Source of the DNA: Planctomycetota bacterium
Lineage (GTDB): Bacteria > Planctomycetota > Phycisphaerae > UBA1845
Direction: 5' to 3'
NCBI GenBank assembly: GCA_024276605.1
Contig: JAJRWX010000005.1
Span: 49 to 64,048, forward strand
DNA: 64,000 bases
Shown one piece after another: positions 18,132-34,362 of the stretch (its first letter is position 1; each line of letters starts with the position of its first letter). The notes under the pieces were generated by a model that saw only the letters and a list, made by a program, of their open reading frames with translations, made no database searches and was not told the DNA's origin. Made by a program: the position numbers and the translations under genes.

Positions 18132-18184
18132 TTTTATTCGCGCTGCATGGACAATAGACGCATTCGTTGCAGGAAGAAACGAGC

Positions 18185-19261
18185 ATGGCCAAGAAACAAC
18201 TTATCACCAAGGTGTGGATCGAAGAAGGGTGCATCGTCTGTGACGCATGTGAAACCGCCGCCCCGGAGGTGTTTGAAGTTATGGACGACACCTGTGTGAT
18301 TCGCCCGGACGCTCTCAATGCTGAATTTACAAAACCCCGTAGCGAGGGAATTGTGGACGCTGCAGAAGAATGTCCGGTAGATGTCATCAAATTTGACAGT
18401 GATACGGTAGAAGTGGCTGACGAAGCCCCTACTGAACCCGCCGCAGCACCAGCGACTGAGACTCAAACGGCACCATCACCAGCCAAAAAAGCACCGGCAG
18501 CCGAGCCGAAAAAAGCTGCCCCCCAAAAAGCCCCCGCCTCAGTTGGCAAAACCAAAGCGCCCAGTGCAGGCGAGCCTGATCCATCGATTCAAGCCCTGTT
18601 AGAGGCTGCCACTTCGCGCGGCGGAAATGCCGGCATCATGCGAAACTCCACAGAGGTACCAACCAGTGCCCAGGGATGGCGAGCGACAGACGTGGACAAT
18701 CTTCCACCTGATGCGAGACAGGCTAAAGTCGTCGAAGCGGCCCAAAAAGCCAAAAAACAATCCGCGCTGCATCGACGCGATTTTGTGAGCAATAGCGCCG
18801 TAGCCATAGGCTGGACGGCGTTTGGTGTGGGAACGGGCATTTCGATCGGACCGGCCTTTGGGCGTTTTATGATGCCTAACGTATTGGAAGAGCCGGACCC
18901 ACGCATTCGCGTCGGCAAGATCACAAGATACATGGAGATGGCTCCCGGCGATGTGAACGAAGACTACAAGCCACAAGGCATCTGGATGATCCGCGATGAG
19001 GATCGTATCGCAGCTTTGAATATTATCTGCACGCATCTGGGGTGCATACCTAATTGGCAACCAAACGATCGAAAATTCAAATGCCCCTGCCATGGCAGCG
19101 GTTACTATTCGGACGGCATTAACTTCGAAGGACCGACACCGCGCCCGCTGGAACGATTCAAGATCACGATCAAGGATGGCATCGTCATTGTAGATAAGAG
19201 CAAGAAATACCAGTATGAATTAGGACAATGGGATCAGCCGGGAAGTTACATCCTAGTCTAG
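18185..19261 (+). CDS. Ferredoxin-domain / Rieske 2Fe-2S fusion subunit of a cytochrome b6f/bc-type complex
   Basis: The start at MAKKQ is preceded by a GGAAGAAA Shine-Dalgarno. The N-terminus carries CIVCDAC...ECPVDV (a single-cluster ferredoxin). An Ala/Pro/Lys linker follows, then RRDF plus a TM helix (Tat-like anchor). The C-terminus carries the Rieske motifs CTHLGC...CPCHGSGY. Confidence 0.85.
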   Translation: MAKKQLITKVWIEEGCIVCDACETAAPEVFEVMDDTCVIRPDALNAEFTKPRSEGIVDAAEECPVDVIKFDSDTVEVADEAPTEPAAAPATETQTAPSPAKKAPAAEPKKAAPQKAPASVGKTKAPSAGEPDPSIQALLEAATSRGGNAGIMRNSTEVPTSAQGWRATDVDNLPPDARQAKVVEAAQKAKKQSALHRRDFVSNSAVAIGWTAFGVGTGISIGPAFGRFMMPNVLEEPDPRIRVGKITRYMEMAPGDVNEDYKPQGIWMIRDEDRIAALNIICTHLGCIPNWQPNDRKFKCPCHGSGYYSDGINFEGPTPRPLERFKITIKDGIVIVDKSKKYQYELGQWDQPGSYILV

Positions 19262-19296: not shown

Positions 19297-20076
19297 ATGA
19301 TTAACCGTTTTGGCAATTGGGTTCGCGAAGGTCAAATTTGGGGGAGCATTTTCCGCCATGGTGTACCACGCGATCGGCGTACACGGGCCATGGCCATTTT
19401 GAGTAACGTGTTTCTACATTTGCATCCGGTAGCCATACGCAAGAGCAGTATCCGCCTCTCGTTCACGTGGTGCATGGGTGGTATCACTTTCTTCTTATTC
19501 CTTGTAGAGATTGTGACCGGCGTTCTGCTGATGTTTTATTACCGTCCTACCGTCGAATATGCTTATTTCGACATCCAAGGCCTTCGAGCACATGTGACGC
19601 TCGGACTGTTACGCGAGTTGCACCGTTGGGGCGCTCACGCGATGGTCATTACCATTTGGCTACACATGCTCCGCGTATTTTTAACGGGCAGCTATAAACC
19701 GCCGCGCGAATTTAATTGGAGCATCGGCGTCATCCTTTTGGTGCTCACCTTGCTACTGTCCTTTACAGGTTATTTGCTCCCGTGGGATCAATTAGCCATG
19801 TGGGCGATTACCGTGGGATCCAACATGGCCCGAGCAACGCCCGGCGCAGGCTCGGAAGGACCGTTGAGCGCATTCATCCAGATCGGCGGTGTACCGTTGG
19901 TTCATGCCGGCGACGATGCACGGTTTGGACTATTGGCCGGTACTTTTGTCGGACCTAATGCCCTGTTACGGTTTTATGTACTCCACTGTGTGTTTATTCC
20001 GTGCGTTGTGACAGTTCTCCTGGCCGTTCACTTTTGGCGTATTCGTAAGGATGGCGGCGTCAGCGGCCCATTGTAA
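19297..20076 (+). CDS. Cytochrome b6-like (N-terminal half of a split cytochrome b)
   Basis: 259-aa ORF with four TM helices. The haem-ligand His context is [36 protein letters not shown]. Confidence 0.9.
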
Positions 20077-20136: not shown

Positions 20137-21255
20137 ATGGAAAGTGGGATGGATTCGATACTAGCAGCTTCATCAACACTAGACAGCGTTAAACATTTTA
20201 TCAACGTCGCTTGTGAGCCACACTGGTTTTTAATCATATCAGTGTTGGCATTCTTCATCTTCCTGATCGGATATCGCACTTGGACAAAGCCGATCGTGGC
20301 AGGCACGGTGAGTGCGCTGGCTACTTTGTTTTTCCTGGCTAGTTGTGCGGATACCAACTTCGCAAAAATTGTCACTAAAGCGGATAATGTCCCCATCGTC
20401 ATCATGATGGTCACAGTGAGTTTCCTTCTTTGGCTGGCCTTTCGGCAGGCAGCTATCAATGACGAGCGCATGGAAAAAGGTGAGCCACTGATCGAAGCCG
20501 GCGCTGACGACAAAGTGCTTGTTTGGCCGGATCTCGTATATAGTGAACTAATCGCCTTGGTTCTGTGTACCGCACTGCTCATCGTCTGGGCTATCATATT
20601 ACGTGCACCACTGGAACAACCGGCGGACCCCAACGTCGCCCCAAACCCGGCTAAGGCGCCGTGGTACTTCCTCGGCTTGCAGGAAATGCTGGTGTATTTC
20701 GACCCTTGGCTCGCAGGCGTAGTATTTCCAGGACTTATTATTGTAGGGCTCCTTGCCATTCCGTACATCGACAAAAACCCCAGAGGCAATGGGTATTACA
20801 CGTTCAAAGAACGTAAGTTCGCCATTACCACGTTCCTGTTTGGGTTTGTCATATTGTGGGTGGTGTTGATCATTTTCGGCACTTTTCTACGAGGACCAAA
20901 CTGGAACTTCTTCGGCCCTTACGAGTTTTGGGATCCCCACCGACCTGCGGCCCTACTCAACACGGAATTTCACGATTTATTTTGGGTCAATACACTCGGT
21001 CGACCATTGCCTGGTCATTATCTAATACGTGAACTTCCGGGCATCGTATTACTTGGGGCTTACTTCATGCTTGGCCCGGTCATTATGAAATGGTTGTTTT
21101 TCAGAAAGATTTCACGCGACATCGGATTTATACGTTACAGTGTCTTGTGCGTATTGATCCTGTTTATGTTACTCATGCCGATCAAGATGGTGCTCCGTTG
21201 GACGTTGAACCTTCACTACATCGTCGGCATTACGGAATGGTTCTTAAATGTGTAG
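20137..21255 (+). CDS. Cytochrome b C-terminal half / subunit-IV-like protein, extended
   Basis: 372-aa polytopic membrane protein. It carries a PEWY-equivalent motif (KAPWYFLGLQEML). It is longer than canonical PetD because of extra TM helices. Confidence 0.8.
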   Translation: MESGMDSILAASSTLDSVKHFINVACEPHWFLIISVLAFFIFLIGYRTWTKPIVAGTVSALATLFFLASCADTNFAKIVTKADNVPIVIMMVTVSFLLWLAFRQAAINDERMEKGEPLIEAGADDKVLVWPDLVYSELIALVLCTALLIVWAIILRAPLEQPADPNVAPNPAKAPWYFLGLQEMLVYFDPWLAGVVFPGLIIVGLLAIPYIDKNPRGNGYYTFKERKFAITTFLFGFVILWVVLIIFGTFLRGPNWNFFGPYEFWDPHRPAALLNTEFHDLFWVNTLGRPLPGHYLIRELPGIVLLGAYFMLGPVIMKWLFFRKISRDIGFIRYSVLCVLILFMLLMPIKMVLRWTLNLHYIVGITEWFLNV

Positions 21256-21320: not shown

Positions 21321-24300
21321 ATGCCGATTCCTGAAAGTTTCCTGTATCGCCCGGAAAAGATAAACGTCTGGTTCGCCGTCAGCAGTGTATTGATGGCCCT
21401 CACTATCGGATGGTTTATAGCCGTCGACTATATTCGTCCCTGGCACGAATACCAAGACGACTATTACGTCGCCAAAGCCGCTATTGCGCATCTGGACTAT
21501 CTGGATGCCATGAAACAGGAGAACCAGCAAAAAATCGATGAAGCGAAAGTGCGTCGAGATGACGCCCAGGAATATATTGATAGCACGGCATCTGAACAAT
21601 TGGCCATGCTCGATGAGAATTTAATCAAAGCTGAGCTGGAATTCAAGAAAGCCAACGCCAATTTCAGTGCAACGTCACAGGTGCTCGATGTGACGCGGGC
21701 CGGGTATGAAGAAATCCTGGCTCAATACGGTGAGCAACATGCCATCACACAGAAATCTCATAAGCAGGTCCGCCTTGAAGAGGATCTTGTCGCAGGGTAT
21801 CAGCAGGATAAAGAACTTTGGGAAGACCGTGTCGCGGAGATTGAGACGCAAATCAAACAGTTGCTCGCCCCGCTCACATCAGCCGAAAAACAGCTTCGCG
21901 ATTTAGAGGCCATAGCCGCGGAAGCCCTCCAGAAAGACCAGCAGTACCGAGGCGTTCTAGACGATGAGGGATTGCTAGGCGGCTTGCCGATCGTCAGTTC
22001 TGTTATCAATGCGCCGTTACTTGACTTTGTCTCTCCTAGAAACACACCGGCTCGCTACCAGGTAAACCAACTGGTACTGCCCGAGATTCGCCAACAACTC
22101 AATTACTTAGTCACCTACACGACCGACCGCTGCACGACCTGTCATTTAGGCATCGCAGATCCGGACTTCTCAAAGGACCGATTAGCCCAGCGATTGGAAC
22201 GATCCCTTCCAGGCATTTTGGAAGCCATGCAACGCATGGGACAAGACCCACCGGACCTTCCCTCGCCACCGAAAACGACTACCGGCACCCCTATTCCTGC
22301 CGGTCAGGTCACGGAACACTGGCAGGAATTAAGCAGACAGCAGCAGGATGATTATTTTGATACGCTGCTGCGCATGGTCAACGAATATTTTAAGGCTAGC
22401 GGGCGCAAGACCATTGAACTGGGCCAACCTTTACTCGCCCACCCGGACCTCGATTTATACGTGTCCGTTGAATCTCCACATCCCATGGCCAAGGTAGGGT
22501 GTACCGTTTGCCATGAGGGCAATCCTCAAGAAACCGATTTCGTTCTTGCCGCCCACACACCACCCACCCACGAAATTGAGGAGGAGTGGGCCGATAAGTA
22601 TTATGATGTCAACCTGGGCGTTCCGACAGCGACATTCGATCTTGTCGAACATTATTGGGATCGCCCCATGCAATTACCGAGGCACAGCGAAGCAGGATGC
22701 GCCAAGTGTCATAGTCAAATCACCGATATTTCCCGCCACCATGAAAAAAATGTAGGGACGATGCTCAATCGTGGCCGCCAATTGTTCACATCGGTCGGCT
22801 GCGTGAACTGTCACACGGAAGACACCATGCCCAACGCACGGCGTGTGGGTCCGGACCTCAGACATATTGCGTCTAAATTGCGTCGCGATTTTGTCGAGCC
22901 TTGGGTTATGTTTCCGCAAAAATTCCGACCTTCCACACGCATGCCGCATTTTTTCTTGCAGGAAAACAATCGGGAAGGGAGTGAGAACCAATTCGATCCC
23001 CATCCATTGTTGCGCAGCGAAACAGAAACCGCTGCCATTGCGCAGTATCTATTTGCTTTGTCCAGTGACTTTTCACCGCTGGAAAAACTCGATGATGTCG
23101 AAGGTGACGTCGAACGGGGTCGCACGTTATTTAAGTCGTTTGGTTGCCTGGCCTGCCATGGCAATATCGCGGAATTCGGGGAAACCTGGATCACGAAAGA
23201 CTTACAACACCGCCTCGATCTAGACGAGAAAACAGCCGGATTCCGCTACAAAGGTATGACTTACATCGAGCGTGTGAAGTATGCCATGGAGCATTTCGGC
23301 TCTGAGTCCGACGGTGTTTTTGACGCGGATCGCGTACGATTCGAGCCGGATCAAGATTATAAACCGCCGACTTTCAGCCGATTTGCACCAGAACTCTCCG
23401 GCATTGGTTCAAAAGTGACGTCCGCATGGCTGTACTCCTGGTTAATGAAACCCGCGCATTATGCCCCTGACACGAAAATGCCCAATATGAGGCTAACCAG
23501 TGCGGACGCCGCCGACATCACCGCCTATCTTATGACGCTTCGGAACGAATCGTTCCAACAAGATCGCATCGACATGAATGCCGACCGTCTCAAGATGGCT
23601 GACGACCTCATATTCACACTGTTGACCGCTCAGCGTAGTGAGCGCCGCAGTCGGGCCATCATGCAGGATGAAGGTCAAGAACTCACTAATATGCTCATAG
23701 CTTTATTAGAACCTTCGTTGGGGCAGCAACCGGCCTATGATTTAATCTCTGCCCAGACGCTCGAAGATAAAAAACTTACCTTTTTGGGCAGCAAAATGAT
23801 TGGTCATTATGGCTGCTATGCCTGCCATAATATTACCGGCTTTGAAACGACCACCCCACCGGGTACAAATCTGACCACGTGGGCACAAAAACCTATCTCG
23901 CAGCTTGATTTCGCGTTTTACAATTACGCGTTCCATCACATGCGAGAGGAAAAAGAAGATGTCTTCGGCCATCTTTATCCTCCAGGGTCGGAAACAGATC
24001 CGGAAGATGTGAACTACTGGTCTCCAGGCATCAACCCACGGGAACAGATCACACATACACATTCCGCTTTCGCCAAACACAAGTTGCGTAATCCACGGTT
24101 GTGGGATAGGGAGAAAATCAAGAAGCCCTACGACAAGTTAAAAATGCCCAACTTCTACCTGACGGACGATGAAGCTGAAACGTTGACAACATTTTTGCTC
24201 TCTCGCAAACCCGCCCTGGTTAGCGAATCGCTACAGATTGATTATCAGCAGAATAGCCTGGGCGCTATCGCCAAAGGGCGAGAACTCACGCGAGAACTGA

Positions 24301-25550
24301 ATTGTATAGCGTGCCATCAAATCGAAGAAAATGCCCCTATCATCCAACAGTATTTCTCACAAGAAATATCAGGCATAAGAATGTTCGACGCCGTCAATGC
24401 CCCTCCGCTTCTATGGGGTGAAGGGGCTAAGATCCAACACCATTGGCTGGACAAATTCCTGCATAATGTAGTACCGTTACGTCCTTGGTTACAAGTACGC
24501 ATGCCAAGCTTTAACTTGACCAAGGCACAGTCTTCGACCTTGGTTGAATACTTCGCCGCGCTGAGTCAACACGACTCTAAACATCTGGACAAGATGACCA
24601 AGCCAGTACATGAATACATCGCAGACGAGAAAAAACGTGCAGCGCATCTTGGGGTGGCAGGTGAAGAAACTCCTTCAGATTCGGAACCGGGATTGGACTG
24701 GTATCAGCAAGAATCCCTATCTTCCATCGCTAAAAATCTACGTCATTGGTCAATTGAGCATAAAGTGATGAGGTCCAGCGAACTAGACCTATTGAGGAAG
24801 TCACCCAAGCAGCTTCGCCAAGCCCATAAGAAATTATTGGAACGTGTTGATTTTCTCACCAGCCTATACGACGTTGAATATCCGTTCGTTGAGCCTACCC
24901 AGTCGCTATCACCGGATGATCGATTCGAAACCGGAAGCAAGTTTTTCAATGACATGGGCTGCTTGAAATGTCACGTATTCGGCGACATGCTGCCAGGACC
25001 GGCCAAGACGACTGACGAATTTGTCAATGTCTACCGCTTAGATGGCGTTCGCGGCGAAGGTGAATCAGCCACGGCTATCATCAACGGCATACCCTATTCC
25101 ATTGGTAGCATCATTGATGGCCACACACTCATCAGCGCGGAAAACATCTTCTACGATACCGGCGATGTTGAAACTAAAGCGATCTTTTCAGGTCCGAATG
25201 CTGCTGGAGAGATGGAAAACATACTGCTAGTGGCAGCCAGCGCCCCCAATCTCGCCTTGACTCATCAGCGATTGCAGCGTGACTGGGTAGTCGGTTGGAT
25301 GCTTGTCCCTCAGCTCATTCAGCCTGGTACGAAGATGCCGCAAAACTTCCCGGGCGGCGAAAGCCCCTTCGCAGGCTCAGAAGAGTACCCAGGAACAGGT
25401 GAGGACCATATCAATCTACTTGTGGATTACCTCTACGATGCCGGGGTTAAAGGTGTCCGATCGCCGCTAACCAAGATTACCCTCGAGGAGGATGACGGCG
25501 AATTTGACGATGAAGAAGGATTTGACGACGAAGAAGAGTTTGACGACTAG
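21321..25550 (+). CDS. Membrane-anchored octahaem cytochrome c (1409 aa) of the bc-type operon
   Basis: It has an N-terminal TM helix and then about 190 aa of heptad-like Glu/Lys/Gln-rich sequence. Eight CxxCH motifs are present: CTTCH, CTVCH, CAKCH, CVNCH, CLACH, CYACH, CIACH, CLKCH. The C-terminal tail is EEDDGEFDDEEGFDDEEEFDD. Confidence 0.85.
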   Translation: MPIPESFLYRPEKINVWFAVSSVLMALTIGWFIAVDYIRPWHEYQDDYYVAKAAIAHLDYLDAMKQENQQKIDEAKVRRDDAQEYIDSTASEQLAMLDENLIKAELEFKKANANFSATSQVLDVTRAGYEEILAQYGEQHAITQKSHKQVRLEEDLVAGYQQDKELWEDRVAEIETQIKQLLAPLTSAEKQLRDLEAIAAEALQKDQQYRGVLDDEGLLGGLPIVSSVINAPLLDFVSPRNTPARYQVNQLVLPEIRQQLNYLVTYTTDRCTTCHLGIADPDFSKDRLAQRLERSLPGILEAMQRMGQDPPDLPSPPKTTTGTPIPAGQVTEHWQELSRQQQDDYFDTLLRMVNEYFKASGRKTIELGQPLLAHPDLDLYVSVESPHPMAKVGCTVCHEGNPQETDFVLAAHTPPTHEIEEEWADKYYDVNLGVPTATFDLVEHYWDRPMQLPRHSEAGCAKCHSQITDISRHHEKNVGTMLNRGRQLFTSVGCVNCHTEDTMPNARRVGPDLRHIASKLRRDFVEPWVMFPQKFRPSTRMPHFFLQENNREGSENQFDPHPLLRSETETAAIAQYLFALSSDFSPLEKLDDVEGDVERGRTLFKSFGCLACHGNIAEFGETWITKDLQHRLDLDEKTAGFRYKGMTYIERVKYAMEHFGSESDGVFDADRVRFEPDQDYKPPTFSRFAPELSGIGSKVTSAWLYSWLMKPAHYAPDTKMPNMRLTSADAADITAYLMTLRNESFQQDRIDMNADRLKMADDLIFTLLTAQRSERRSRAIMQDEGQELTNMLIALLEPSLGQQPAYDLISAQTLEDKKLTFLGSKMIGHYGCYACHNITGFETTTPPGTNLTTWAQKPISQLDFAFYNYAFHHMREEKEDVFGHLYPPGSETDPEDVNYWSPGINPREQITHTHSAFAKHKLRNPRLWDREKIKKPYDKLKMPNFYLTDDEAETLTTFLLSRKPALVSESLQIDYQQNSLGAIAKGRELTRELNCIACHQIEENAPIIQQYFSQEISGIRMFDAVNAPPLLWGEGAKIQHHWLDKFLHNVVPLRPWLQVRMPSFNLTKAQSSTLVEYFAALSQHDSKHLDKMTKPVHEYIADEKKRAAHLGVAGEETPSDSEPGLDWYQQESLSSIAKNLRHWSIEHKVMRSSELDLLRKSPKQLRQAHKKLLERVDFLTSLYDVEYPFVEPTQSLSPDDRFETGSKFFNDMGCLKCHVFGDMLPGPAKTTDEFVNVYRLDGVRGEGESATAIINGIPYSIGSIIDGHTLISAENIFYDTGDVETKAIFSGPNAAGEMENILLVAASAPNLALTHQRLQRDWVVGWMLVPQLIQPGTKMPQNFPGGESPFAGSEEYPGTGEDHINLLVDYLYDAGVKGVRSPLTKITLEEDDGEFDDEEGFDDEEEFDD

Positions 25551-25649
25551 TATGCCCCTCAATTAGAAACAACAAAACACTTGCCATCGCAGGCGTGATC
25601 GCATACAACCCCTGCCTGAAGAATGGGAAGATGCAAGGAGAATAGACCA

Positions 25650-26384
25650 ATGAAACTGAGTATGATAACACTAGCCGCGGCCTTTGCGATCAATACGATT
25701 ACGTTCACCCCGACCCCCTGTCAGGCAGGTGATAAAAATGTGATCACGGGTAAGATTATTTTCAAAGGTGACCTAGCCAAATACAAGCGTACTAAAATTA
25801 ACACCTCAAAAGATCCGAATTGTAAAAAATCCAAAAAAACAATCGGCTCTGAAAAAGTCATTATCAACAAAAAAACTGACCCTCTTACTTTGCGAAACGT
25901 CGTTGTCTCCATCAAGAGTGGGCTGGGCGACAAAGTATTCCCTGTATCAAAGGAGGAACTCAAGGTCACTCAATTCGGATGTCAGTACAAACCGCATATC
26001 ATTGCCGGGCAGTCCGGTCAAACACTACGTATCCTTAACGGCGATAACACAAATCATAACATCCACTTTCTGCCCAAAGTCAACGACGAGCATAATTTTA
26101 CGCAACCCAAGAAGGACATGGTAAAAGGCAAAACCATCGTTCTCAAAGCTGAAGATCCGTTTAAGGTTAAGTGCGACGTTCATCCTTGGATGAACTGTTA
26201 TATAGCTGTATTTGAGCATCCTTTCTTTGATGTCACGGGTAAGGATGGTACATTCAAACTTGCAGGCATGCCCGATGGCAGTTATACCATCCAAGCATGG
26301 CATGAATCCTTTGGTACGGTTACCGCTGAGGCGGAGATATCCGGTAATACCATTGTAACTAAGGACATGACGTTTGAACCATAA
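25650..26384 (+). CDS. Lys-rich amicyanin-like cupredoxin with a carboxypeptidase-regulatory-like C-terminal domain
   Basis: An AAGGAG Shine-Dalgarno lies 8 nt before the ATG at 25650. A signal peptide is present. The type-1 Cu pattern is NHNIHF...CDVHPWM (C-x2-H-x2-M, as in amicyanin CTPHPFM). The mature N-terminus has 14 Lys in about 52 residues. Confidence 0.75.
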   Translation: MKLSMITLAAAFAINTITFTPTPCQAGDKNVITGKIIFKGDLAKYKRTKINTSKDPNCKKSKKTIGSEKVIINKKTDPLTLRNVVVSIKSGLGDKVFPVSKEELKVTQFGCQYKPHIIAGQSGQTLRILNGDNTNHNIHFLPKVNDEHNFTQPKKDMVKGKTIVLKAEDPFKVKCDVHPWMNCYIAVFEHPFFDVTGKDGTFKLAGMPDGSYTIQAWHESFGTVTAEAEISGNTIVTKDMTFEP

Positions 26385-26458: not shown

Positions 26459-26618
26459 AGCGTCGCTGTCGAACACAGGGCCGGAACGGCAACAGTCGTT
26501 GTCGTCATTGTATTGCGTTTGTGAAAGAGTATATTCGTATTCGTTAGCGAACATGGCCGGTGTCGCTGACGAACTTAGGGCCGGATGATAATAGTCGTTA
26601 TCATCATTGCATTGCATT
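26459..26618. repeat. Two ~60-bp direct repeats exactly 100 bp apart in the cupredoxin-coxB spacer, each with a small hairpin
   Basis: R1 (26459-26518) is gcgtcgctgtcgaacacagggccggaacggcaacagtcgttgtcgtcattgtattgcg. R2 (26559-26618) is gtgtcgctgacgaacttagggccggatgataatagtcgttatcatcattgcattgca. The stems ggcaac/gttgtc and gataat/gttatc differ by paired changes. Confidence 0.6.
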
Positions 26619-26636
26619 AGTAAAAGGAAGGCGGAC

Positions 26637-27518
26637 ATGAATCGTTCGCGTATCATCGGTGTAGCTACTGTCATTGTGGTCATTGTTTGTATGATGGCTC
26701 CCACCGTTGTCTTAGGACAAACGGATGGTCCCGTTGCCTCCGGCCACATCATTGATGGTGATTATGGGTATGGCATGCCGCCCAATGCCTCTAAGGATGG
26801 CCATAACGTTGACAATCTCATCCACATTTTACATTGGTTTATGCTTGCCTTATTTGTGGCATGGGGCATCTTTTTCGTATATTGCTTGATGCGTTTTCGC
26901 GCAAGGGCGGGTCACCGAGCCACGTACGATCCCGTCAAAGCGAAGGTTTCCAAATATGCGGAAATCGGCGTCGCAGCCTTTGAAGCCTTTTTGTTAATCG
27001 GATTATCGATGCCAATATGGGCGGCCACGAAAAATGAGCCACCGGCGAAAGAACTGGCTACACACGTACGTGTCGTAGCGGAACAGTTTCAGTGGAATTT
27101 TCACTATCCTGGAACGGATGGAACTTTCGGACGGACGGCCGCGGCATTTGTAGACACGGTTGACAATCCATTGGGACTTGACCGTAGTGATCCAGCAGCC
27201 GAAGACGATGTATTCGCAACCGAATTACACCTTCCCGTGAATAAGCCGGTCATTTGTGACCTGACCTCCAAGGACGTCATTCACAGCTTCTTTCTGCCTG
27301 TGATGCGCGTCAAGCAAGACGTCATTCCCGGCATGCGTATTCCGGTTTGGTTTACGCCGGTCAAAGAGGGACGCTATGAAGTAGCCTGTGCCCAGTTATG
27401 TGGCAATAACCATTATTCTATGCGGGCGGAGATGGTGATCGAAGACGATGCCTCTTTCGCCACATGGCTTGAAGAAGTCGGCAAAGTGGAAGAGTTCGAC
27501 GAAGACGAGCTGGACTAG
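26637..27518 (+). CDS. ctaC: Cytochrome c oxidase subunit II (no fused cytochrome c domain)
   Basis: The start at MNRSRIIG is preceded by an AAGGAAGG Shine-Dalgarno. It has two TM helices and the CuA site CAQLCGNNHYSM. The acidic C-terminus is VEEFDEDELD. Confidence 0.9.
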   Translation: MNRSRIIGVATVIVVIVCMMAPTVVLGQTDGPVASGHIIDGDYGYGMPPNASKDGHNVDNLIHILHWFMLALFVAWGIFFVYCLMRFRARAGHRATYDPVKAKVSKYAEIGVAAFEAFLLIGLSMPIWAATKNEPPAKELATHVRVVAEQFQWNFHYPGTDGTFGRTAAAFVDTVDNPLGLDRSDPAAEDDVFATELHLPVNKPVICDLTSKDVIHSFFLPVMRVKQDVIPGMRIPVWFTPVKEGRYEVACAQLCGNNHYSMRAEMVIEDDASFATWLEEVGKVEEFDEDELD

Positions 27519-27528
27519 GAACTTATTG

Positions 27529-29259
27529 ATGAGCGGCGATCACCACCACGAACCAAGCTTTATACGCAAATACGTATTTTCCGTCGATCACAAAGTGATT
27601 GGCATTCAATACGGCGTTACGGCGCTTTGTTTCCTATTTCTCGGCTTTTGTTTGATTATGATGATGCGCTGGCAACTTGCCTATCCTGGCGAAACCATGC
27701 CCATCATTGGCAATCTATTTGGCGAAGCAGCTATGCCCGGTGGCGTAATGTTGCCTGAGTTCTACAACTCTTTAGGTGCCATGCACGGTACGATCATGAT
27801 CTTCTTAGGCGTTGTCCCGCTTCTGGTTGGGGCCTTTGGCAACTATGTCATGCCGTTGCAGATCGGTGCCCCGGACATGGCCTTCCCCAAGCTTAATATG
27901 TTAAGCTACTGGTCTTACTTTCTCGGCGGGGTTGTGATGCTAGCCAGTTTTTTCGTGCCCGGCGGCGCAGCCAATTCCGGTTGGACTTCATATCCACCTT
28001 TGTCGGACATTGCCACTACCGGCCAAACATGGTGGCTCTTCGGCATGGTTTGTCTTATCACCTCTTCTTTGCTTGGCTCGGTGAACTTCATTGTAACCAT
28101 CGTGCAATTACGGGTCGAAGGCTTGACTATGTTCCGTTTGCCCTTTTTCGTATGGGCTCAGTTAATTACTTCATTCCTGCTATTACTTGCGTTTCCACCG
28201 CTTGAAGCAGCCGGCGTATTACAATTGATGGACCGCCTTGCGGGTACGAGCTTCTTTCTTCCTGAAGGCCTTGTAGTCAGCGGTGTCGTCCAAACACAGA
28301 TATCCGGTGGTGGTAGCCCTATATTGTGGCAGCACTTGTTCTGGTTCCTAGCTCATCCCGAGGTCTATGTACTTATTCTACCGGCGATGGGCATGGTCGC
28401 AGAGATCATCTCTATCAATACACGCAAGCCATTGTGGGGCTATCGAGCGATGATCTATTCCACCATTTTTCTAGGTTTTATGTCCTTCATCGTCTGGGCA
28501 CATCACATGTTCATGACAGGTATGGGCACGAAAATAAGTGCCTTCTTTGCCACAACTACAATGATCATTTCAATCCCTTCAGTCGTTATTTTAACCGCCA
28601 TGGTCATTAGCCTTTACCAAGGTGCCATTCGCTTTACTGTCCCTATGTTATTCGCCCTGGCTTTTTTGCCGATGTTCGCCATTGGCGGTTTGACCGGGCT
28701 TCCGCTGGGCTTACCCGCCTCTGACATCCATTTGCATGATACATATTACGTCATAGGTCATTTTCATTACGTCGTCGCACCGGGCACCATATTTGCCATA
28801 TTCGCTGGCATCTATCACTGGTTCCCCAAAATCACCGGTCGCACGTTGAATAAAACGCTAGGATACATTCACTTCGCGTTCTCTTTCATCTTCATCAATA
28901 TCATATTCATGCCCATGTTCTGGCAAGGTATGGCCGGTGTTTCCCGGCGACTGTACGACCAAACGGTGTACGCTCATGGCGATGCCGTGCAGTCTCTAAC
29001 CGTGATTTCTTCATGGGGCGCGTGGATGCTTGGGCTTGCACAAATTCCATTTATCATCAACTTTTTCATTAGCATCAAAGCCGGCAAAAAAGTGTCCGAC
29101 AATCCGTGGGAAGCAACAACACTCGAATGGTCCGCCCCTTCGCCGCCTCCGCATGGCAACTTTGCCACCGTCCCGGTCGTCTACCGCGGGCCTTATGAAT
29201 ATAGCGTACCTGGCGCTAGTAGCGATTATATTCCTCAACACATAACTACGGAGGCTTGA
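27529..29259 (+). CDS. ctaD: Cytochrome c oxidase subunit I
   Basis: The start at MSGDHHHEPSF is at 27529. Canonical haem-copper oxidase motifs are present: WFLAHPEVYVLILP, WAHHMF and GHFHYV. Confidence 0.95.
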   Translation: MSGDHHHEPSFIRKYVFSVDHKVIGIQYGVTALCFLFLGFCLIMMMRWQLAYPGETMPIIGNLFGEAAMPGGVMLPEFYNSLGAMHGTIMIFLGVVPLLVGAFGNYVMPLQIGAPDMAFPKLNMLSYWSYFLGGVVMLASFFVPGGAANSGWTSYPPLSDIATTGQTWWLFGMVCLITSSLLGSVNFIVTIVQLRVEGLTMFRLPFFVWAQLITSFLLLLAFPPLEAAGVLQLMDRLAGTSFFLPEGLVVSGVVQTQISGGGSPILWQHLFWFLAHPEVYVLILPAMGMVAEIISINTRKPLWGYRAMIYSTIFLGFMSFIVWAHHMFMTGMGTKISAFFATTTMIISIPSVVILTAMVISLYQGAIRFTVPMLFALAFLPMFAIGGLTGLPLGLPASDIHLHDTYYVIGHFHYVVAPGTIFAIFAGIYHWFPKITGRTLNKTLGYIHFAFSFIFINIIFMPMFWQGMAGVSRRLYDQTVYAHGDAVQSLTVISSWGAWMLGLAQIPFIINFFISIKAGKKVSDNPWEATTLEWSAPSPPPHGNFATVPVVYRGPYEYSVPGASSDYIPQHITTEA

Positions 29260-29263
29260 TTCA

Positions 29264-29884
29264 GTGTCAGCCGAGGTTCTTCCATATACTGTTAAACCGC
29301 ATCCCGTCACCGGCTTGTACAATGGCAAGTTCGGTATTTGGCTGTTTCTTGCCTCCGAGGTAATGCTCTTTGGCGCGTTGTTTTCAACCTATATCTTCCT
29401 GCGTATTGGTGCCCCGGAAACCGGACCAACCGCGTGGCCCACGGGTGAGCAAACCCATCTGAGCTGGAAGCTTGGCGGATTGAACACGCTCATTCTTATT
29501 CTTTCCAGCGTGACCATGGTCATGGCCTGGGTCCAATTCAAGATGGACAATCTCGCTAAGGGGCGCATGTACTTGATTGCCACAGCTGTTTTAGCCATAG
29601 CCTTTGTGGCTATTAAGCTGAAGTTTGAATATATGCATAAGTTTCATCTGGGTATCAAACCCTCCACCAGCGTCTTTTTCGCTATTTACTTTACCATGAC
29701 GGGACTGCACGCACTGCATATCATTGGCGGCGTCGTCGTGATCGCTTATTTCATCGGTCCCGGTGCAAAGCTTTGGCATGAAAACCGCGAATATTACACA
29801 AATCGAATTGAATGCACCGGCCTGTACTGGCACTTTGTCGATCTTGTTTGGATTTTTCTGTTTCCCATTCTCTATTTACTGTAG
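29264..29884 (+). CDS. ctaE: Cytochrome c oxidase subunit III
   Basis: 206-aa ORF with a GTG start and five TM helices. It carries WLFLASEVMLFGALF and the terminal YWHFVDLVWIFLFP motif. Confidence 0.9.
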   Translation: MSAEVLPYTVKPHPVTGLYNGKFGIWLFLASEVMLFGALFSTYIFLRIGAPETGPTAWPTGEQTHLSWKLGGLNTLILILSSVTMVMAWVQFKMDNLAKGRMYLIATAVLAIAFVAIKLKFEYMHKFHLGIKPSTSVFFAIYFTMTGLHALHIIGGVVVIAYFIGPGAKLWHENREYYTNRIECTGLYWHFVDLVWIFLFPILYLL

Positions 29885-29895
29885 GAGATCAGGTC

Positions 29896-30218
29896 ATGAG
29901 TGATGCACATGCAGACGTCACTAAACATGTTAAAGCATACATCGCTGTTTTTACTGCACTGATTACCCTAACGGTCGTCACGGTATTGGCATCCAGACTG
30001 ACGGTTGCACCGTCGGTACATGTAGCCATCGCGCTGGCTATTGCCGGTTTCAAAGCGTCACTCGTGGCTATGATTTTCATGCACCTTAAATGGGAAAGGC
30101 AGGCAATATCTGGTTTGTGCTAGCGCTAACAGCCGTTTTCTTCGCCTTCCTGGTTTGTATTCCTTCACTCGTATCTGCGGATAAACCGCTTGGCACTGTG
30201 TTTACTTCTTGGGGTTAA
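29896..30218 (+). pseudogene. ctaF: Cytochrome c oxidase subunit IV (prokaryotic COX4 type) with an apparent 1-nt frameshift
   Basis: The ATG at 29896 follows a GGAGA Shine-Dalgarno. Two TM helices precede FMHLKWE, and the frame then ends at 30123. The alternative frame reads GNIWFVLALTAVFFAFLVCIPSLVSADKPLGTVFTSWG* (to 30218), which is the expected third helix. The frame switch coincides with the A-run at 30095-30097. Confidence 0.65.
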
Positions 30219-30266
30219 CCAATTTATCGCAATAGCGAAAATATCAAGTAGAGATTTGTCGCAACC

Positions 30267-30473
30267 ATGTCACTCAAAGCATTCCACATTATCTTCGTGA
30301 TCTTTTCGTCGCTAACTGCGTTGGGTTTTGGCTTCTGGGCTATTCGTCACTATCGCCTGCACTGCGAATTGGCTGCTTTGATTGTTGGCATCGCTTCTCT
30401 TGTGGGTTGTGCGATGCTCATTATCTACGGTAAATGGTTCCTGCGTAAACTAAGGGGAGTCAGCTACTTGTGA
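30267..30473 (+). CDS. Small two-TM membrane protein in the oxidase operon
   Basis: 68-aa ORF with two hydrophobic helices. Its stop overlaps the next ORF start (GTGA at 30470-30473). No family recognised. Confidence 0.5.
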   Translation: MSLKAFHIIFVIFSSLTALGFGFWAIRHYRLHCELAALIVGIASLVGCAMLIIYGKWFLRKLRGVSYL

Positions 30474-30736
30474 TCCTACATCATCCACGAACATGCCTTT
30501 TCTTTTCTGTTATGGTGGTGTTTTGCCTGTTCACAACAACATCGGCCCATGCATGTGCCGTCTGTTTCGGCGACCCGGATTCGCCTATGTCCAAAGGCGC
30601 ATTGATGGGCGTGATCGTATTGCTAGGCATCATCGTTTCAGTACTTTGTGGCGTGACGGGTACAATCATATTTTGGATGCACCGTGCTCGGCAATTATCC
30701 ATCCAGCAATCCAACCACTCATCGACTAACATATGA
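30470..30736 (+). CDS. Small exported/anchored protein with a CAVCFGDPDSP motif
   Basis: 88-aa ORF. It has a signal-like N-terminus, a CxxC motif immediately after it, and then one TM helix. Its stop overlaps the ctaA start by 4 nt. Confidence 0.55.
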   Translation: MILHHPRTCLFFSVMVVFCLFTTTSAHACAVCFGDPDSPMSKGALMGVIVLLGIIVSVLCGVTGTIIFWMHRARQLSIQQSNHSSTNI

Positions 30737-31683
30737 CCGGTCCTTCGATATCTTTTTCCTCCACTAATTACCATCGTGGTTTGCACCTACTTGCGATTGC
30801 CACGGCATGTATGGTCTTTCCGCTGATTATCGTTGGCGCAGGTGTCACCAGTCAGGATGCTGGAATGGCTTTCCCGGATTGGCCTACTTCCAACGGACAT
30901 CTCGTGAATCCTCCACAATGGTGGCAACAAAACGACACCCGCTGGGAGCATGGTCATCGCCTTATCGGATGGGTTGTCGGCATGCTCGCTATCGGTACAA
31001 CCGCCCTCAGCTTCAAACGCGGAAAACCCGTCAAGCAACTCGCCATCGCTACGCTCATCGCGATCATCATTCAAGGGGTTCTCGGCGGGTTACGCGTACG
31101 CGAAATTTCTACATCGCTCGCTTTGGTTCACGGTATCTGGGGACAGCTGTGTTTTTGCTTAGCCTGCACGACAGCCCTTCTCTGCTCCAGGGGATGGATG
31201 TGTTATGATGGCGGGCCTCATAAAATTCGCGGTGCGTCGACGTTGCAACGATTATGCCTCGCATCTGTGTTCGCAGTATTCATTCAATTACTTAGCGGTG
31301 CAACCTACCGACACATGGCCATAAGTAGTGCCATATTGATTCATGTTTTGTGGGTTGTCATATTGTCTCTTGTGGTCGGATGTGTGGTGATGTGGATCAT
31401 CACACAAAATCACGGGCAAACGCTTCTTGGGAAACTGGGGAGAGCATTAGCTACCCTTATGGTTATCCAGCTATTCCTCGGTGGGTTCAGCTTTCTTATC
31501 ATCGTATTAAAAATGTCGAGTTCAGCGTTTGCGATATGGGCCATTCCCTCTGCACATGTAGCGGTGGGCGCTTTAATGTTCGCATGTTCGCTTTCGCTAT
31601 GTTTATGTTCTTTTCGTATACTTAGACCTGCTCCGGAGGAGGTCACGATAGATACAACCGGGCAGGCCACGGCTACATCATGA
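30733..31683 (+). CDS. ctaA: Haem A synthase (COX15/CtaA family)
   Basis: 316-aa ORF with eight predicted TM helices. The conserved His contexts are WEHGHRLIGW and YRHMAISSAILIHV. It lies directly before ctaB. Confidence 0.8.
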   Translation: MTGPSISFSSTNYHRGLHLLAIATACMVFPLIIVGAGVTSQDAGMAFPDWPTSNGHLVNPPQWWQQNDTRWEHGHRLIGWVVGMLAIGTTALSFKRGKPVKQLAIATLIAIIIQGVLGGLRVREISTSLALVHGIWGQLCFCLACTTALLCSRGWMCYDGGPHKIRGASTLQRLCLASVFAVFIQLLSGATYRHMAISSAILIHVLWVVILSLVVGCVVMWIITQNHGQTLLGKLGRALATLMVIQLFLGGFSFLIIVLKMSSSAFAIWAIPSAHVAVGALMFACSLSLCLCSFRILRPAPEEVTIDTTGQATATS

Positions 31684-32594
31684 GCGACACCTTACCATTG
31701 GCGGATCACGCGCGGGCCGTAGGCTGGTCTCGTTTTGCAGCCTATATTGAATTAACCAAACCGCGCGTCGCGAGCTTAGTGCTTGTCGCTACAGCCGTCG
31801 GTTATTTTCTCGCATTACCTGCCATCCCAGACATAACCGCATTCATTGGTTTAGCGAGCACCATCCTCGGCATCACGTTGGTCGCCGGTTCAGCCAACGC
31901 CATGAATCAGTTGATCGAGGTTCGCTATGACGCCATGATGACCAGAACACAAGATCGCCCGTTAGTCACGAATCGACTGACACCTTACGAAGTTCTCGTG
32001 TCTGCCACCATCGCTTGTATTCTGGGCATTTCCATTTTGGCTATCCAAACGAATCTACTCGCTGCGGCGCTCGCGCTGCTTTCATTCACAAGCTACGTGT
32101 TTGTCTATACACCACTGAAACGTACAACTACGCTTTGTGTCATCGTCGGGGCAGTTCCCGGTGCATTGCCTCCGGTCATCGGATGGGCGGCAGCCACGGG
32201 CACTATACCTTTAGAAGCTTGGCTGTTATTTGCTATCGTCTTCGTGTGGCAATTACCTCACGTAGCAGCCATCGCATGGCTCCACAAAGAAGACTACCAA
32301 CGTGCTGATTTCGCCATGCTCCCCGTCGTCGACCCCTCCGGCTTGCGCACATGTCTTCACATGATCACGCATTCCATCACGCTTCTTACGGTAAGTTTTC
32401 TACCCATCGTGTACGGTCTAGCAGGGACGACTTATTTACTAGGCGCTATGATACTTGGCGTTTCATTTCTTCTGGTAGGCGTAGCCTTTGTTTGGCTTAA
32501 GACTGCTTACATCGCCCGCGTTCACCTATTTTCTTCCATCACCTACCTACCCGCGTTATTTGCCGCCATGATGGTGGACAAGGTCGGCATCTAG
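31680..32594 (+). CDS. ctaB: Protohaem IX farnesyltransferase (haem O synthase)
   Basis: 304-aa UbiA-family protein carrying NAMNQLIEVRYDAMMTRTQDRP and VWQLPHVAAIAW. Confidence 0.9.
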   Translation: MSDTLPLADHARAVGWSRFAAYIELTKPRVASLVLVATAVGYFLALPAIPDITAFIGLASTILGITLVAGSANAMNQLIEVRYDAMMTRTQDRPLVTNRLTPYEVLVSATIACILGISILAIQTNLLAAALALLSFTSYVFVYTPLKRTTTLCVIVGAVPGALPPVIGWAAATGTIPLEAWLLFAIVFVWQLPHVAAIAWLHKEDYQRADFAMLPVVDPSGLRTCLHMITHSITLLTVSFLPIVYGLAGTTYLLGAMILGVSFLLVGVAFVWLKTAYIARVHLFSSITYLPALFAAMMVDKVGI

Positions 32595-32607
32595 CCTAGA
32601 TAGCGTA

Positions 32608-33570
32608 ATGCCCATGTCAGAGAAAGCCTGTGTTGAGGTCGAGTCAGTTTCCCATCAATACGGAAAGCGTTGGGCGCTCAACGACATTAGCTTTCAAGTA
32701 TACCCAGGCCAATTGTTTGCTTTGCTCGGCCCTAACGGTGGTGGCAAGAGCACGTTATTTCGTATCCTCACCACCCTACTTTCACCCACCAAGGGAACAG
32801 CGCGTATCGAGGGTGCAGACATTATCAAGCAATCGCACGATGTGCGCTGCTCAGTTGGCGTTGTGTTCCAAAACCCCAGCCTCGATGATCGACTCACCGT
32901 TTTGGAAAACCTCACCCACCAGGGACATCTGTACGGTTTGAAAGGCGTACCGCTTCGCCAACGCTGCCATGAAGTCATGGACGAGTTCGATATCGATGAC
33001 CGAGCGAAGGATATGGTTGGCATATTGTCGGGCGGCTTGAAACGACGCGTTGAACTGGCCAAGGCAAACCTTCATCATCCAAAAATACTCATTCTGGACG
33101 AACCCAGTACCGGCCTGGACCCCGCTGCCCGTTTAGGCCTATTTACTTACCTTGAAAAATTGCGCACCGCCGACGGGGTCACCACGCTGGTCACCACGCA
33201 CTTAATGGACGAGGCTGATCGTTGCGATATCGTAGCTTTCTTGGATGACGGCAAGCTAGTGGCCCTTGATTCGCCCTTAGCCTTAAAGCAAGCGATCGGC
33301 GGCGATGTTATTATAGTGACGACCCAAGACGCACCAGCCATGCATGAGAAAATCGCAAATAGATTTGGTGGGCAGGTGGATTTGATAGACAATGGTGTTC
33401 GTATCGAACGGGATCGAGGCCACGAGTTTGTACCGGAGTTAATCGAAGCCTTCCCCAACGAAATCGACAGCGTCACCGTCGGCAAACCCACGCTGGACGA
33501 TGTGTTCCTTCATTTGACAGGTCATCAACTCGCCAGAGATAGTCATGAAAACGTGGAGAATAATCGTTGA
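32608..33570 (+). CDS. ABC transporter ATP-binding protein (ABC-2 subfamily style)
   Basis: Walker A is GPNGGGKST, the signature is LSGGLKRR and Walker B is ILILDEPSTGLD. It overlaps the permease gene by 4 nt. Confidence 0.9.
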   Translation: MPMSEKACVEVESVSHQYGKRWALNDISFQVYPGQLFALLGPNGGGKSTLFRILTTLLSPTKGTARIEGADIIKQSHDVRCSVGVVFQNPSLDDRLTVLENLTHQGHLYGLKGVPLRQRCHEVMDEFDIDDRAKDMVGILSGGLKRRVELAKANLHHPKILILDEPSTGLDPAARLGLFTYLEKLRTADGVTTLVTTHLMDEADRCDIVAFLDDGKLVALDSPLALKQAIGGDVIIVTTQDAPAMHEKIANRFGGQVDLIDNGVRIERDRGHEFVPELIEAFPNEIDSVTVGKPTLDDVFLHLTGHQLARDSHENVENNR

Positions 33571-34361: not shown

Positions 34362-34362
34362 T

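Follow-up and report, generated by a model that had tools for sequence, protein, structure and literature searches.

Why would a Rieske iron–sulfur protein carry a ferredoxin at its N-terminus? In the usual view, Rieske/cytochrome b complexes have just two electron-transfer partners, membrane quinone and a high-potential carrier at the outer membrane face, and a ferredoxin attached to one of their catalytic subunits raises the question of where that domain resides and what it exchanges electrons with, if anything. The question arises from a single gene, here called Fd-Rieske, at positions 18185-19261 of a 64,000-nucleotide stretch of DNA from a Planctomycetota bacterium (assembly GCA_024276605.1, contig JAJRWX010000005.1; "the window" hereafter refers to this whole stretch). 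An earlier note, made from the sequence alone, had described the gene product as a Rieske subunit with an N-terminal ferredoxin domain, placed ahead of an internal twin-arginine translocation (Tat) motif. We find that the fusion is a conserved, uninterrupted protein, that its ferredoxin is strongly predicted to remain in the cytoplasm, and that the complex to which it belongs most resembles two anammox complexes with a redox module on the same membrane face; we tentatively propose that the ferredoxin serves this complex as a cytoplasmic electron port.

The ferredoxin–Rieske fusion and its conservation

The characteristic motifs of Fd-Rieske can be read directly from its sequence, in the order given in the earlier note: CIVCDAC at residues 16–22 and ECPVDV at residues 62–67, then HRRDF at residues 196–200, a hydrophobic helix at residues 203–230 and finally the two Rieske boxes, CTHLGC at residues 282–287 and CPCHGS at residues 300–305. 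Both domains score above the Pfam cutoffs, the N-terminal one as Fer4_13 (residues 13–69, E = 1.6e-6, 29.1 bits against a cutoff of 24.5) and the C-terminal one as Rieske (residues 261–325, E = 3.5e-8, 33.7 bits against a cutoff of 20.3), and NCBIfam places the C-terminal part nearest to the iron–sulfur subunits of b6f and bc1 complexes. Its boxes fit the CxHxGC and CxCH patterns, including the two additional disulfide cysteines, and its ligands, fold, and operon all place it in the Rieske iron–sulfur protein family. Judged by its sequence, the N-terminal domain belongs to Fer4_13 and is a single-cluster ferredoxin with all four ligands in place, namely C16, C19, C22, and C63 (followed by P64), with C37 as a further conserved cysteine. 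The best match to this domain in a phmmer search of the PDB is the Bacillus thermoproteolyticus ferredoxin (1iqz, E = 6e-4), and the Thermotoga maritima ferredoxin also matches (1rof, E = 6.5e-3). Both are monocluster [4Fe-4S] ferredoxins, although Foldseek recovers ferredoxin folds only weakly for the domain, and we consider a [4Fe-4S]-type cluster to be moderately supported by these matches.

The fusion is found far beyond the window. A search of 5.8 billion proteins returned 3537 matches to Fd-Rieske, of which the best 120 are all full-length (99–100% coverage, 60–83% identity), with both Pfam domains annotated in 117 of them. In a scan of one genome per species, 253 genomes encode a relative, and among the best 80 loci, which we examined, all 79 that are complete encode the CxxCxxC motif and the Rieske box together in a single unbroken open reading frame (ORF), the 80th being cut at a contig end and left out of this count. 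Each of 240 database homologues, taken from two subfamilies, likewise has both the CxxCxxC...CP and the Rieske-box motif. When 76 orthologues from species-level genomes are aligned, C16, C19, C22, C37, C63, P64, R197, R198, and every Rieske ligand show 100% conservation; CTHLGC and CPCH are also invariant in an alignment of 142 sequences, and the RR pair is at least 90% conserved across both subfamilies. The single-cluster ferredoxin pattern and the internal twin arginine, which the earlier note had seen in one sequence and for which it had suggested an alignment of homologues, are thus properties of the family. Furthermore, the ratio of nonsynonymous to synonymous substitution rates (dN/dS) of the ferredoxin part is 0.07–0.08 against the two closest relatives (L001 and L002), the comparison being confined to these two since dS is saturated for the others, and by this sequence-based measure the ferredoxin part is under purifying selection.

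The earlier note had itself named two findings that would undo its reading, Cys ligands that vary among orthologues and a translation start near the RRDF motif. Neither is borne out, the ligands being invariant as described above. The mechanical start of the ORF is a TTG at 18167, six codons 5′ of the ATG at 18185, but this ATG is preceded at a distance of 8 nucleotides by AGGAAG, and the N-termini of homologues (MATKE... or MAKKE..., that is, MA(T/K)K) align at it, so that it is likely the true start of the gene. No internal start is conserved among the 76 orthologues: Met152, which is the sole methionine between the start and the RR pair in the window protein, falls in an alignment column whose commonest residue reaches just 18%. 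A start near the RR pair is effectively ruled out by this variability together with the purifying selection on the N-terminal part. The possibility that the fusion is an artifact of any kind, whether through two genes joined by a miscall or through translation starting near the RR pair, is practically negligible, as it has nothing in its favor beyond its a priori possibility and the presence of Met152 in the window protein, and it is at odds with the single ORF in every complete locus and homologue, with the selection acting on the ferredoxin part, and with N-termini that align at MAxK.

Between its two cofactor domains, the protein is less uniform than originally described. The earlier note had assigned about 110 residues to one Ala/Pro/Lys linker, and this holds for the first ~50 of them (residues 79–130), which differ in both length and sequence among orthologues and have the expected composition (17 Ala, 10 Pro, and 7 Lys in 53 residues), but not for the remaining ~65 (residues 131–196), which form a conserved module with the pattern DPxIxALLxAAxxRGG ... 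LPPDARQAKVxEAAxKA. An AlphaFold2 model built from the 142-sequence alignment has a mean predicted local distance difference test (pLDDT) score of 80.8, compared to 58 from a shallower alignment of 28 sequences. In this model, the ferredoxin domain (residues 1–78) and the Rieske domain are both predicted with high confidence (pLDDT 92–97 and 96–98, respectively), residues 81–126 fall below 50 and are predicted to be disordered, and the conserved module contains short helices at residues 133–144 and 160–166, followed by a long helix at residues 175–229 that runs without a break from the LPPDARQAKV... segment through the RR pair into the membrane segment (residues 203–230, pLDDT 83–93).

In terms of distribution, the best 80 of the 253 genomes that encode a relative are all metagenome-assembled genomes (MAGs) of Planctomycetota, mostly labeled Phycisphaerae. 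We note that this taxonomy comes from the labels on the MAG records, that all named examples are MAGs, and that no cultured representative with Fd-Rieske occurs among the named relatives. Two large subfamilies carry the fusion, with ~11,500 clusters at 90% identity in total; the second of these (query P0154) is labeled Phycisphaerales/Phycisphaeraceae and has both motifs in 120 of its 120 listed members. As far as names are available, the fusion therefore appears to be confined to the Planctomycetota, and mainly to the Phycisphaerae, a restriction to one clade that the earlier note had singled out as worth checking.

To place the fusion among other Rieske proteins, the part comprising the RR pair, the helix, and the Rieske domain was searched against 1.84 billion cluster representatives, and the best 150 were examined, the whole window family having collapsed into one representative in this search. 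An N-terminal ferredoxin is present in 14 of the 150, a canonical short N-terminus in 16, and a cytoplasmic tail of 45–290 residues before the RR pair, without ferredoxin, in at least 70, with repeated [ST]xx[ED]ILAAAR motifs in 12 of these long-tailed representatives. The ferredoxin-domain profile of the window family matches all 14 ferredoxin-bearing representatives (E = 1e-13 to 1e-51), and because the ferredoxin domains of the fusion proteins are homologous, this suggests that the fusion is old. The description of the architecture as unusual for a bc/b6f complex consequently needs qualification: it is apt in comparison to textbook bc1 and b6f complexes, but not within this lineage, where the fusion is the rule and where long tails before the RR pair are common even in relatives that lack the ferredoxin. 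We found no description of a ferredoxin–Rieske fusion in the literature searched, most subscription-journal papers lying outside the reach of that search, and the design is apparently undescribed.

Predicted membrane topology

The strongest hydrophobic peak of the whole protein lies at residues 203–230, with a Kyte–Doolittle score of 1.27 in a 19-residue window, which is typical of the weakly hydrophobic h-regions of Tat signals, while residues 1–190 contain no hydrophobic segment (the corresponding maximum is 0.95, within the soluble ferredoxin domain). The RR pair is followed by x-F/L and a moderately hydrophobic region, here HRRDFVS and the Gly-rich helix, as is characteristic of a Tat signal-anchor; the pair is not, however, at the extreme N-terminus but at residues 197–198, after ~196 soluble residues, and is thus internal, as the earlier note had recognized. 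The flank on the N-terminal side of the helix is strongly basic (KKAKKQSALHRRDF) and that on the C-terminal side is acidic (NVLEEPDP), and a scan of the sequence found no AxA-type cleavage site, no signal-peptidase site, and no second hydrophobic segment. Rieske signal-anchors are normally uncleaved, and a Tat signal or signal-anchor inserts as a hairpin, with its n-region staying on the cis side of the membrane.

We predict that residues 203–230 form an uncleaved Tat signal-anchor in the N-in orientation. The earlier note had left two options, in which the ferredoxin either stays on the cytoplasmic side or is exported together with the Rieske domain. Because there is no hydrophobic segment 5′ of the RR pair, because the flanks are basic on the N-terminal and acidic on the C-terminal side, and because Tat signals insert as hairpins, the first of these is strongly favored, with the ferredoxin, tether, and stalk predicted to be cytoplasmic and only the Rieske domain exported. 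Co-export, which would add a second Fe–S center on the p-side, draws on the ability of the Tat system to move folded, cofactor-loaded proteins, but we consider it highly improbable, given that the ferredoxin precedes the RR pair and so belongs to the region that remains on the cis side, that the flank charges indicate an N-in orientation, and that neither a second hydrophobic segment nor a signal-peptidase site is present.

There is experimental precedent for an internal RR pair ahead of a Tat-inserted helix in the actinobacterial Rieske proteins (PMC3471235, PMC5449189). The three-helix Rieske protein of this group (QcrA/S. coelicolor Sco2149) resembles the window protein in having an internal RR pair followed by a helix that is Tat-dependent in the actinobacterial case (same sources), but there the pair is preceded by two Sec-inserted transmembrane (TM) helices, whereas here it is preceded by a soluble cofactor domain and a linker, with no upstream helix. 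On this sequence layout, the window protein is not a Rieske protein of the actinobacterial dual Sec/Tat type. It would instead extend the range of Tat substrates to a signal-anchor that is preceded by a folded, cofactor-loaded cytoplasmic domain.

The respiratory complex and its closest relatives

The positions of Fd-Rieske, its parts, and its neighbors are collected in Table 1. The gene order HEAT protein, Fd-Rieske, cytochrome b6, subunit IV, and octaheme cytochrome c is kept in nearly all of the 80 loci, and the cytochrome b6 and subunit IV genes lie directly 3′ of Fd-Rieske both in the window and in nearly all of these loci. Judged by sequence and gene order, Fd-Rieske is the Rieske subunit of a respiratory Rieske/cytochrome b complex of the b6 type, and the gene cluster as a whole is read as the aerobic quinol-to-oxygen chain of the organism rather than an exotic side enzyme; the bc operon and the oxidase genes that follow it would form one long aerobic-respiration gene block.

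Table 1. Features of the Fd-Rieske locus, with positions in the window.
Feature	Position	Strand	Details and basis
HEAT-repeat protein, one TM helix	16902-18131	+	Pfam HEAT_2; strongly hydrophobic TM helix at residues 83–101; start codon provisional
Fd-Rieske gene	18185-19261	+	358 residues plus stop; ATG at 18185, stop at 19259-19261
Single-cluster ferredoxin domain, residues 1–78	18185-18418	+	Pfam Fer4_13, phmmer against PDB, AlphaFold2, invariant Cys, dN/dS
Variable Ala/Pro/Lys-rich flexible linker, residues 79–130	18419-18574	+	Composition, length variation, AlphaFold2
Conserved cytoplasmic tail module (predicted location), residues 131–196	18575-18772	+	Conservation, AlphaFold2 helices
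Internal twin-arginine pair R197-R198 (HRRDFVS)	18773-18778	+	Conservation
Single weakly hydrophobic Gly-rich helix, residues 203–230	18791-18874	+	Kyte–Doolittle, flank charges, AlphaFold2
Rieske [2Fe-2S] domain, residues 233–358	18881-19258	+	Pfam Rieske, PDB match
Rieske box I, CTHLGC	19028-19045	+	Residues 282–287
Rieske box II, CPCH	19082-19093	+	Residues 300–303
Cytochrome b6-like subunit	19297-20076	+	259 residues, 4 TM helices, CMGG (CxGG) heme cn motif; Pfam Cytochrome_B
Enlarged subunit IV-like protein	20137-21255	+	372 residues, ~8 hydrophobic segments, APWY Qo motif; Pfam Cytochrom_B_C
Membrane-anchored octaheme cytochrome c	21321-25550	+	1409 residues, 8 CxxCH motifs; syntenic in most loci
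CarboxypepD_reg-like protein	25623-26384	+	253 residues; between octaheme cytochrome gene and COX2
aa3-type cytochrome c oxidase genes COX2, COX1, COX3	26607-29884	+	Directly downstream of bc operon
Whole oxidase cluster: COX2, COX1, COX3, CtaA, CtaB, ABC transporter, SCO1	26607-35055	+	One strand with bc operon

The closest PDB entry to the Rieske domain is Kustd1480 of the anammox bacterium Kuenenia stuttgartiensis (9rk3, E = 4.8e-37 by sequence; TM-score 0.90 and root-mean-square deviation 1.7 Å by Foldseek), followed by Kuste4569 and only then by PetC chains of b6f complexes. In the Kuenenia complexes that contain Kustd1480 and Kuste4569, the b6-like core bears an FeS/FAD NAD(P) oxidoreductase on its cytoplasmic side, and this enzyme is proposed to take a low-potential electron on the cytoplasmic (n-) side through heme bH/cN and an extra heme b, the latter bound, in an AlphaFold3 prediction, by a histidine of the cytochrome b N-terminus; no N-terminal ferredoxin is reported on the Kuenenia Rieske proteins in that study (PMC12954380). 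The likeness of the window operon to these systems (Kustd1480-1485/Kuste4569-4574) goes beyond the Rieske domain, and includes a four-helix, b6-like cytochrome b with heme cN, an enlarged subunit IV, a large octaheme cytochrome c in place of cytochrome f and, as predicted for the window complex, a redox module on the cytoplasmic face. This module is, however, a separate FeS/FAD NAD(P) oxidoreductase encoded in the operon in Kuenenia and a ferredoxin fused to the Rieske N-terminus in the window, where the operon is followed by aa3 oxidase genes and thus has an aerobic context, unlike the anammox complexes. No gene for an FeS/FAD NAD(P) oxidoreductase was found between 15894 and 36976, where the neighbors include a DAG-kinase-like protein, the HEAT and CarboxypepD_reg proteins, and the COX genes. 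From these comparisons of sequence and gene content, the window complex is closest to the Kustd1480-85 type, minus the NAD(P) reductase subunit that defines it.

The CMGG motif of the cytochrome b subunit lies at residues 59–62, with Cys59 aligning with Cys35 of cytochrome b6. Compared with b6, the subunit is longer at its N-terminus by ~24 residues, an extension that is nearly invariant (in the region of residues 18–58) and carries H21, H41, and H43. Both FLHLHP (H41 and H43) and the C-terminal RIRK at residues 248–251 (R248, R250, and K251) are invariant in 83 cytochrome b sequences. The numbering of H43 and RIRK is near that of His43 and Arg247 in Kuste4571, the residues proposed there as ligands of the extra n-side heme b (PMC12954380), which is a likeness by residue number and not by alignment.

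With cytochrome b6f, the window complex shares the split between cytochrome b6 and subunit IV, the CxGG heme cn motif, and a Rieske protein with an RR signal-anchor. It differs in having no cytochrome f gene in the operon and the 1409-residue octaheme cytochrome c instead, in having APWY rather than PEWY as its Qo motif, and in its respiratory rather than photosynthetic context. For cyclic electron flow in b6f, it is a proposal of long standing that ferredoxin acts at the Qi/heme cn site on the n-side (PMC5600118), and the same proposal appears in a preprint (10.1101/2020.08.22.262592); in b6f, the ferredoxin is a free [2Fe-2S] protein whose direct reaction is debated, whereas that of the window is of the [4Fe-4S] type, as far as can be judged from its matches, and covalently tethered. 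A covalent union of a Rieske/cytochrome b-type module with cytoplasmic Fe–S domains is also found in the "PDWF-FeS clade" of Kao and Hunte (2014), in which cytochrome b is fused to 4Fe-4S or flavin domains (PMC4122944); in that clade, however, the fusion is on cytochrome b and probably belongs to other enzyme complexes, and in the window the Rieske subunit carries it, within an operon complete with genes for cytochrome b, subunit IV, and cytochrome c.

Among the remaining membrane subunits, the subunit IV homologue is unusually large, its ~8 hydrophobic segments comparing with 3 in b6f and 5 in the anammox models. The octaheme cytochrome c gene sits at the operon position expected for cytochrome f or c1, and its product is anchored at the N-terminus, with a C-terminal tail that is strikingly acidic (EEDDGEFDDEEGFDDEEEFDD). 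As this gene lies between the bc and aa3 genes, the octaheme cytochrome may wire the bc complex to the aa3 oxidase. The order of the aa3 oxidase genes in the window is also found in locus L081, and a CarboxypepD_reg-like gene occupies the equivalent position in L081 and L082.

A possible electron port on the cytoplasmic face

Taking the above into account, we propose that the tethered ferredoxin is an n-side electron port of the complex, a reading that we hold tentatively and would place a little short of an even chance. The RR pair and the Gly-rich helix would act as an uncleaved Tat signal-anchor, with the folded Rieske domain exported to the p-side, and the cytoplasmic part would consist of a helical stalk that extends the membrane helix, a tether of ~50 Ala/Pro/Lys-rich residues and, at its tip, the [4Fe-4S]-type ferredoxin. 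Each complex would in this way hold a captive low-potential one-electron carrier on its n-face, or two per dimer if it dimerizes like other Rieske/cytochrome b complexes, and the carrier would shuttle electrons between cytoplasmic partners and the n-side cofactors, that is, heme bH/cn at the Qi site and perhaps one further heme on this side. It would be the fused counterpart of the FeS/FAD NAD(P) reductase that the anammox complexes carry as a cytoplasmic subunit. In thermodynamic terms, the simple, downhill direction would run from reduced ferredoxin to Qi/menaquinone, in an "FQR-like" ferredoxin-assisted Q cycle; the reverse, uphill direction, in which bifurcation at the Qo site drives the reduction of ferredoxin, could also operate, and is what the anammox model would predict.

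A one-electron carrier on a long Ala/Pro-rich linker with a membrane anchor is familiar from Rhodobacter cytochrome cy, which shuttles locally between complexes. The tethered ferredoxin would mirror this arrangement on the opposite side of the membrane: cytochrome cy is a high-potential heme c protein on the p-side, whereas the window carrier is predicted to be an Fe–S ferredoxin of the n-side, with a catalytic subunit for its anchor.

We favor the port because the domain is a classical electron-transfer ferredoxin that is conserved as strictly as the Rieske ligands, because the closest characterized relatives, the two anammox complexes, have their FeS/FAD NAD(P) oxidoreductase on this cytoplasmic face too, and because ferredoxin donation to heme cn has long been proposed for b6f; the n-side heme cn motif (CMGG) of the complex counts on the same side. 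Variation within the family is also informative. Five divergent variants (P0122, P0128, P0136, P0139, and P0140) have only ~20–30 residues from the ferredoxin to the RR pair, and in another (P0141, L081 8001-9245) the tail module and the Rieske domain are preceded by two ferredoxin domains in tandem, its gene lying in a HEAT/cytochrome b/subunit IV/multiheme c/COX2 cluster like that of the window, while some ferredoxin-bearing variants adjoin cytochrome b and subunit IV without an adjacent multiheme cytochrome c. The existence of short-linker and tandem variants argues that proximity to the complex, and not a long tether, is what has been selected, and this comparison of sequences suggests that the covalent link between the ferredoxin and the anchor matters more than the length of the linker.

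These arguments have to be set against several considerations that weigh on the other side. Contact between the ferredoxin and the complex is hypothetical, and a disordered tether of ~50 residues could equally serve a remote partner. At least 70 of the 150 closest Rieske representatives have equally long tails that are free of cofactors, and since so many relatives do, the tail may have a primary role that is not redox in nature, with the ferredoxin as an add-on. The gene context is that of an ordinary aerobic chain, a bc-type complex followed by aa3 genes, with no obvious need for ferredoxin, and a low-potential [4Fe-4S] cluster in the cytoplasm of an aerobe may suit sensing more than bulk electron flow. 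No tat genes were found among the window ORFs scanned with Pfam. Electron transfer to or from the complex by the tethered ferredoxin, and its direction, can accordingly be advanced only weakly, and the more specific version of the port, in which it works on the n-side of a heme-cn b6-type complex by either feeding the Qi site or removing the low-potential electron from the Qo site, is possible but rather doubtful.

The same considerations lead naturally to a sensor or regulatory domain, whose cluster would report the state of oxygen, iron, or redox balance and thereby control the complex at the level of assembly, Tat export, stability, or activity, rather than carry catalytic electrons. This would fit an aerobic chain in which the need for ferredoxin is not evident, and the conserved, membrane-anchored HEAT-repeat neighbor could be its binding partner; furthermore, because relatives without ferredoxin keep long tails with conserved short motifs, the tail itself may be a regulatory or scaffolding platform. 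We nevertheless regard this as unlikely, as the domain has a classical electron-transfer ferredoxin fold whose four cysteines are conserved as strictly as the Rieske ligands, the tandem-ferredoxin protein P0141 resembles an electron wire more than it does a sensor, and the module found on the n-side of the related anammox complexes is a catalytic one.

Somewhat less likely still is a ferredoxin that is merely tethered near the membrane for some other enzyme, such as pyruvate:ferredoxin oxidoreductase (PFOR), ferredoxin:NAD(P) reductase (FNR), a complex I-like enzyme, or biosynthetic Fe–S enzymes, and that exchanges no electrons with the bc complex. Being long and disordered, the linker could sweep a large area around the anchor, and in L081 a PFOR gene lies ~6 kb upstream of the P0141 gene, on the opposite strand. 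This proximity occurs at one genomic place only, however, represented by two near-identical contigs, and the short-linker variants keep the ferredoxin at the complex. In addition, the Rieske fusion is maintained across subfamilies with differing operon contexts, which argues that its function is tied to the Rieske complex.

Finally, cleavage of the linker after synthesis could leave the ferredoxin soluble and the Rieske protein a normal one, in which case the fusion would ensure co-expression and nothing more. An Ala/Pro-rich disordered linker is accessible to proteases in principle, but it contains no conserved cleavage motif and is dispensable in the short variants, and the conserved stalk module between the linker and the RR pair would be pointless in a protein that is cut, so that release of the ferredoxin appears very improbable.

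Returning to the electron port, what is at stake is whether soluble carriers of low potential exchange electrons with b6-type complexes on their n-side. There are two long-running ideas of such a port, one leading from ferredoxin to heme cn of b6f and the other from the anammox complexes to NAD(P)+, and the evidence for both is indirect. A ferredoxin held permanently at the n-side of a heme-cn-type complex, and conserved across thousands of sequences, would be a natural experiment that points the same way. If the proposal is correct, Fd-Rieske would be the first natural fusion to directly support electron exchange between ferredoxin and heme cn, which is a disputed step in b6f cyclic flow and the basis of the proposed NAD(P)H-generating mechanism of anammox, and would make this exchange testable, as the protein offers a simple construct for electron paramagnetic resonance (EPR), potentiometry, kinetics, and cryogenic electron microscopy (cryo-EM). 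Should the domain be merely regulatory, there would still be a useful correction to annotation, these proteins currently being named "Rieske 2Fe-2S domain-containing protein", "4Fe-4S domain-containing protein", or "cytochrome b6-f complex iron-sulfur subunit" in the databases.

Two further elements of these loci deserve mention. The HEAT-repeat gene, whose product is a candidate accessory or assembly subunit, is syntenic in ~70 of the 80 loci. It also lies ahead of a ferredoxin-less Rieske gene in L085, and is absent in L083, L084, and L086; as it is thus found beside a Rieske protein of the non-ferredoxin type (L085) and is missing beside some genes of the ferredoxin type (L086), we rejected the idea that it is a strictly ferredoxin-specific partner. 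In L087, an unannotated gene of 362 residues lies upstream. The second element concerns the tails of relatives that lack the ferredoxin. Homology between the tail module (residues 128–196) and the [ST]xx[ED]ILAAAR repeats of these relatives was considered but is not supported, since a hidden Markov model (HMM) of the module matches just 3 of the 150 Rieske representatives. The Ala/Pro-rich tails of P0149, P0156, P0158, P0160, P0176, P0181, P0183, and P0269 (loci L083 and L084) are 200–290 residues long and hold 2–4 copies of [ST]xx[ED]ILAAAR(G), which looks like an unrecognized short linear motif of the n-side.

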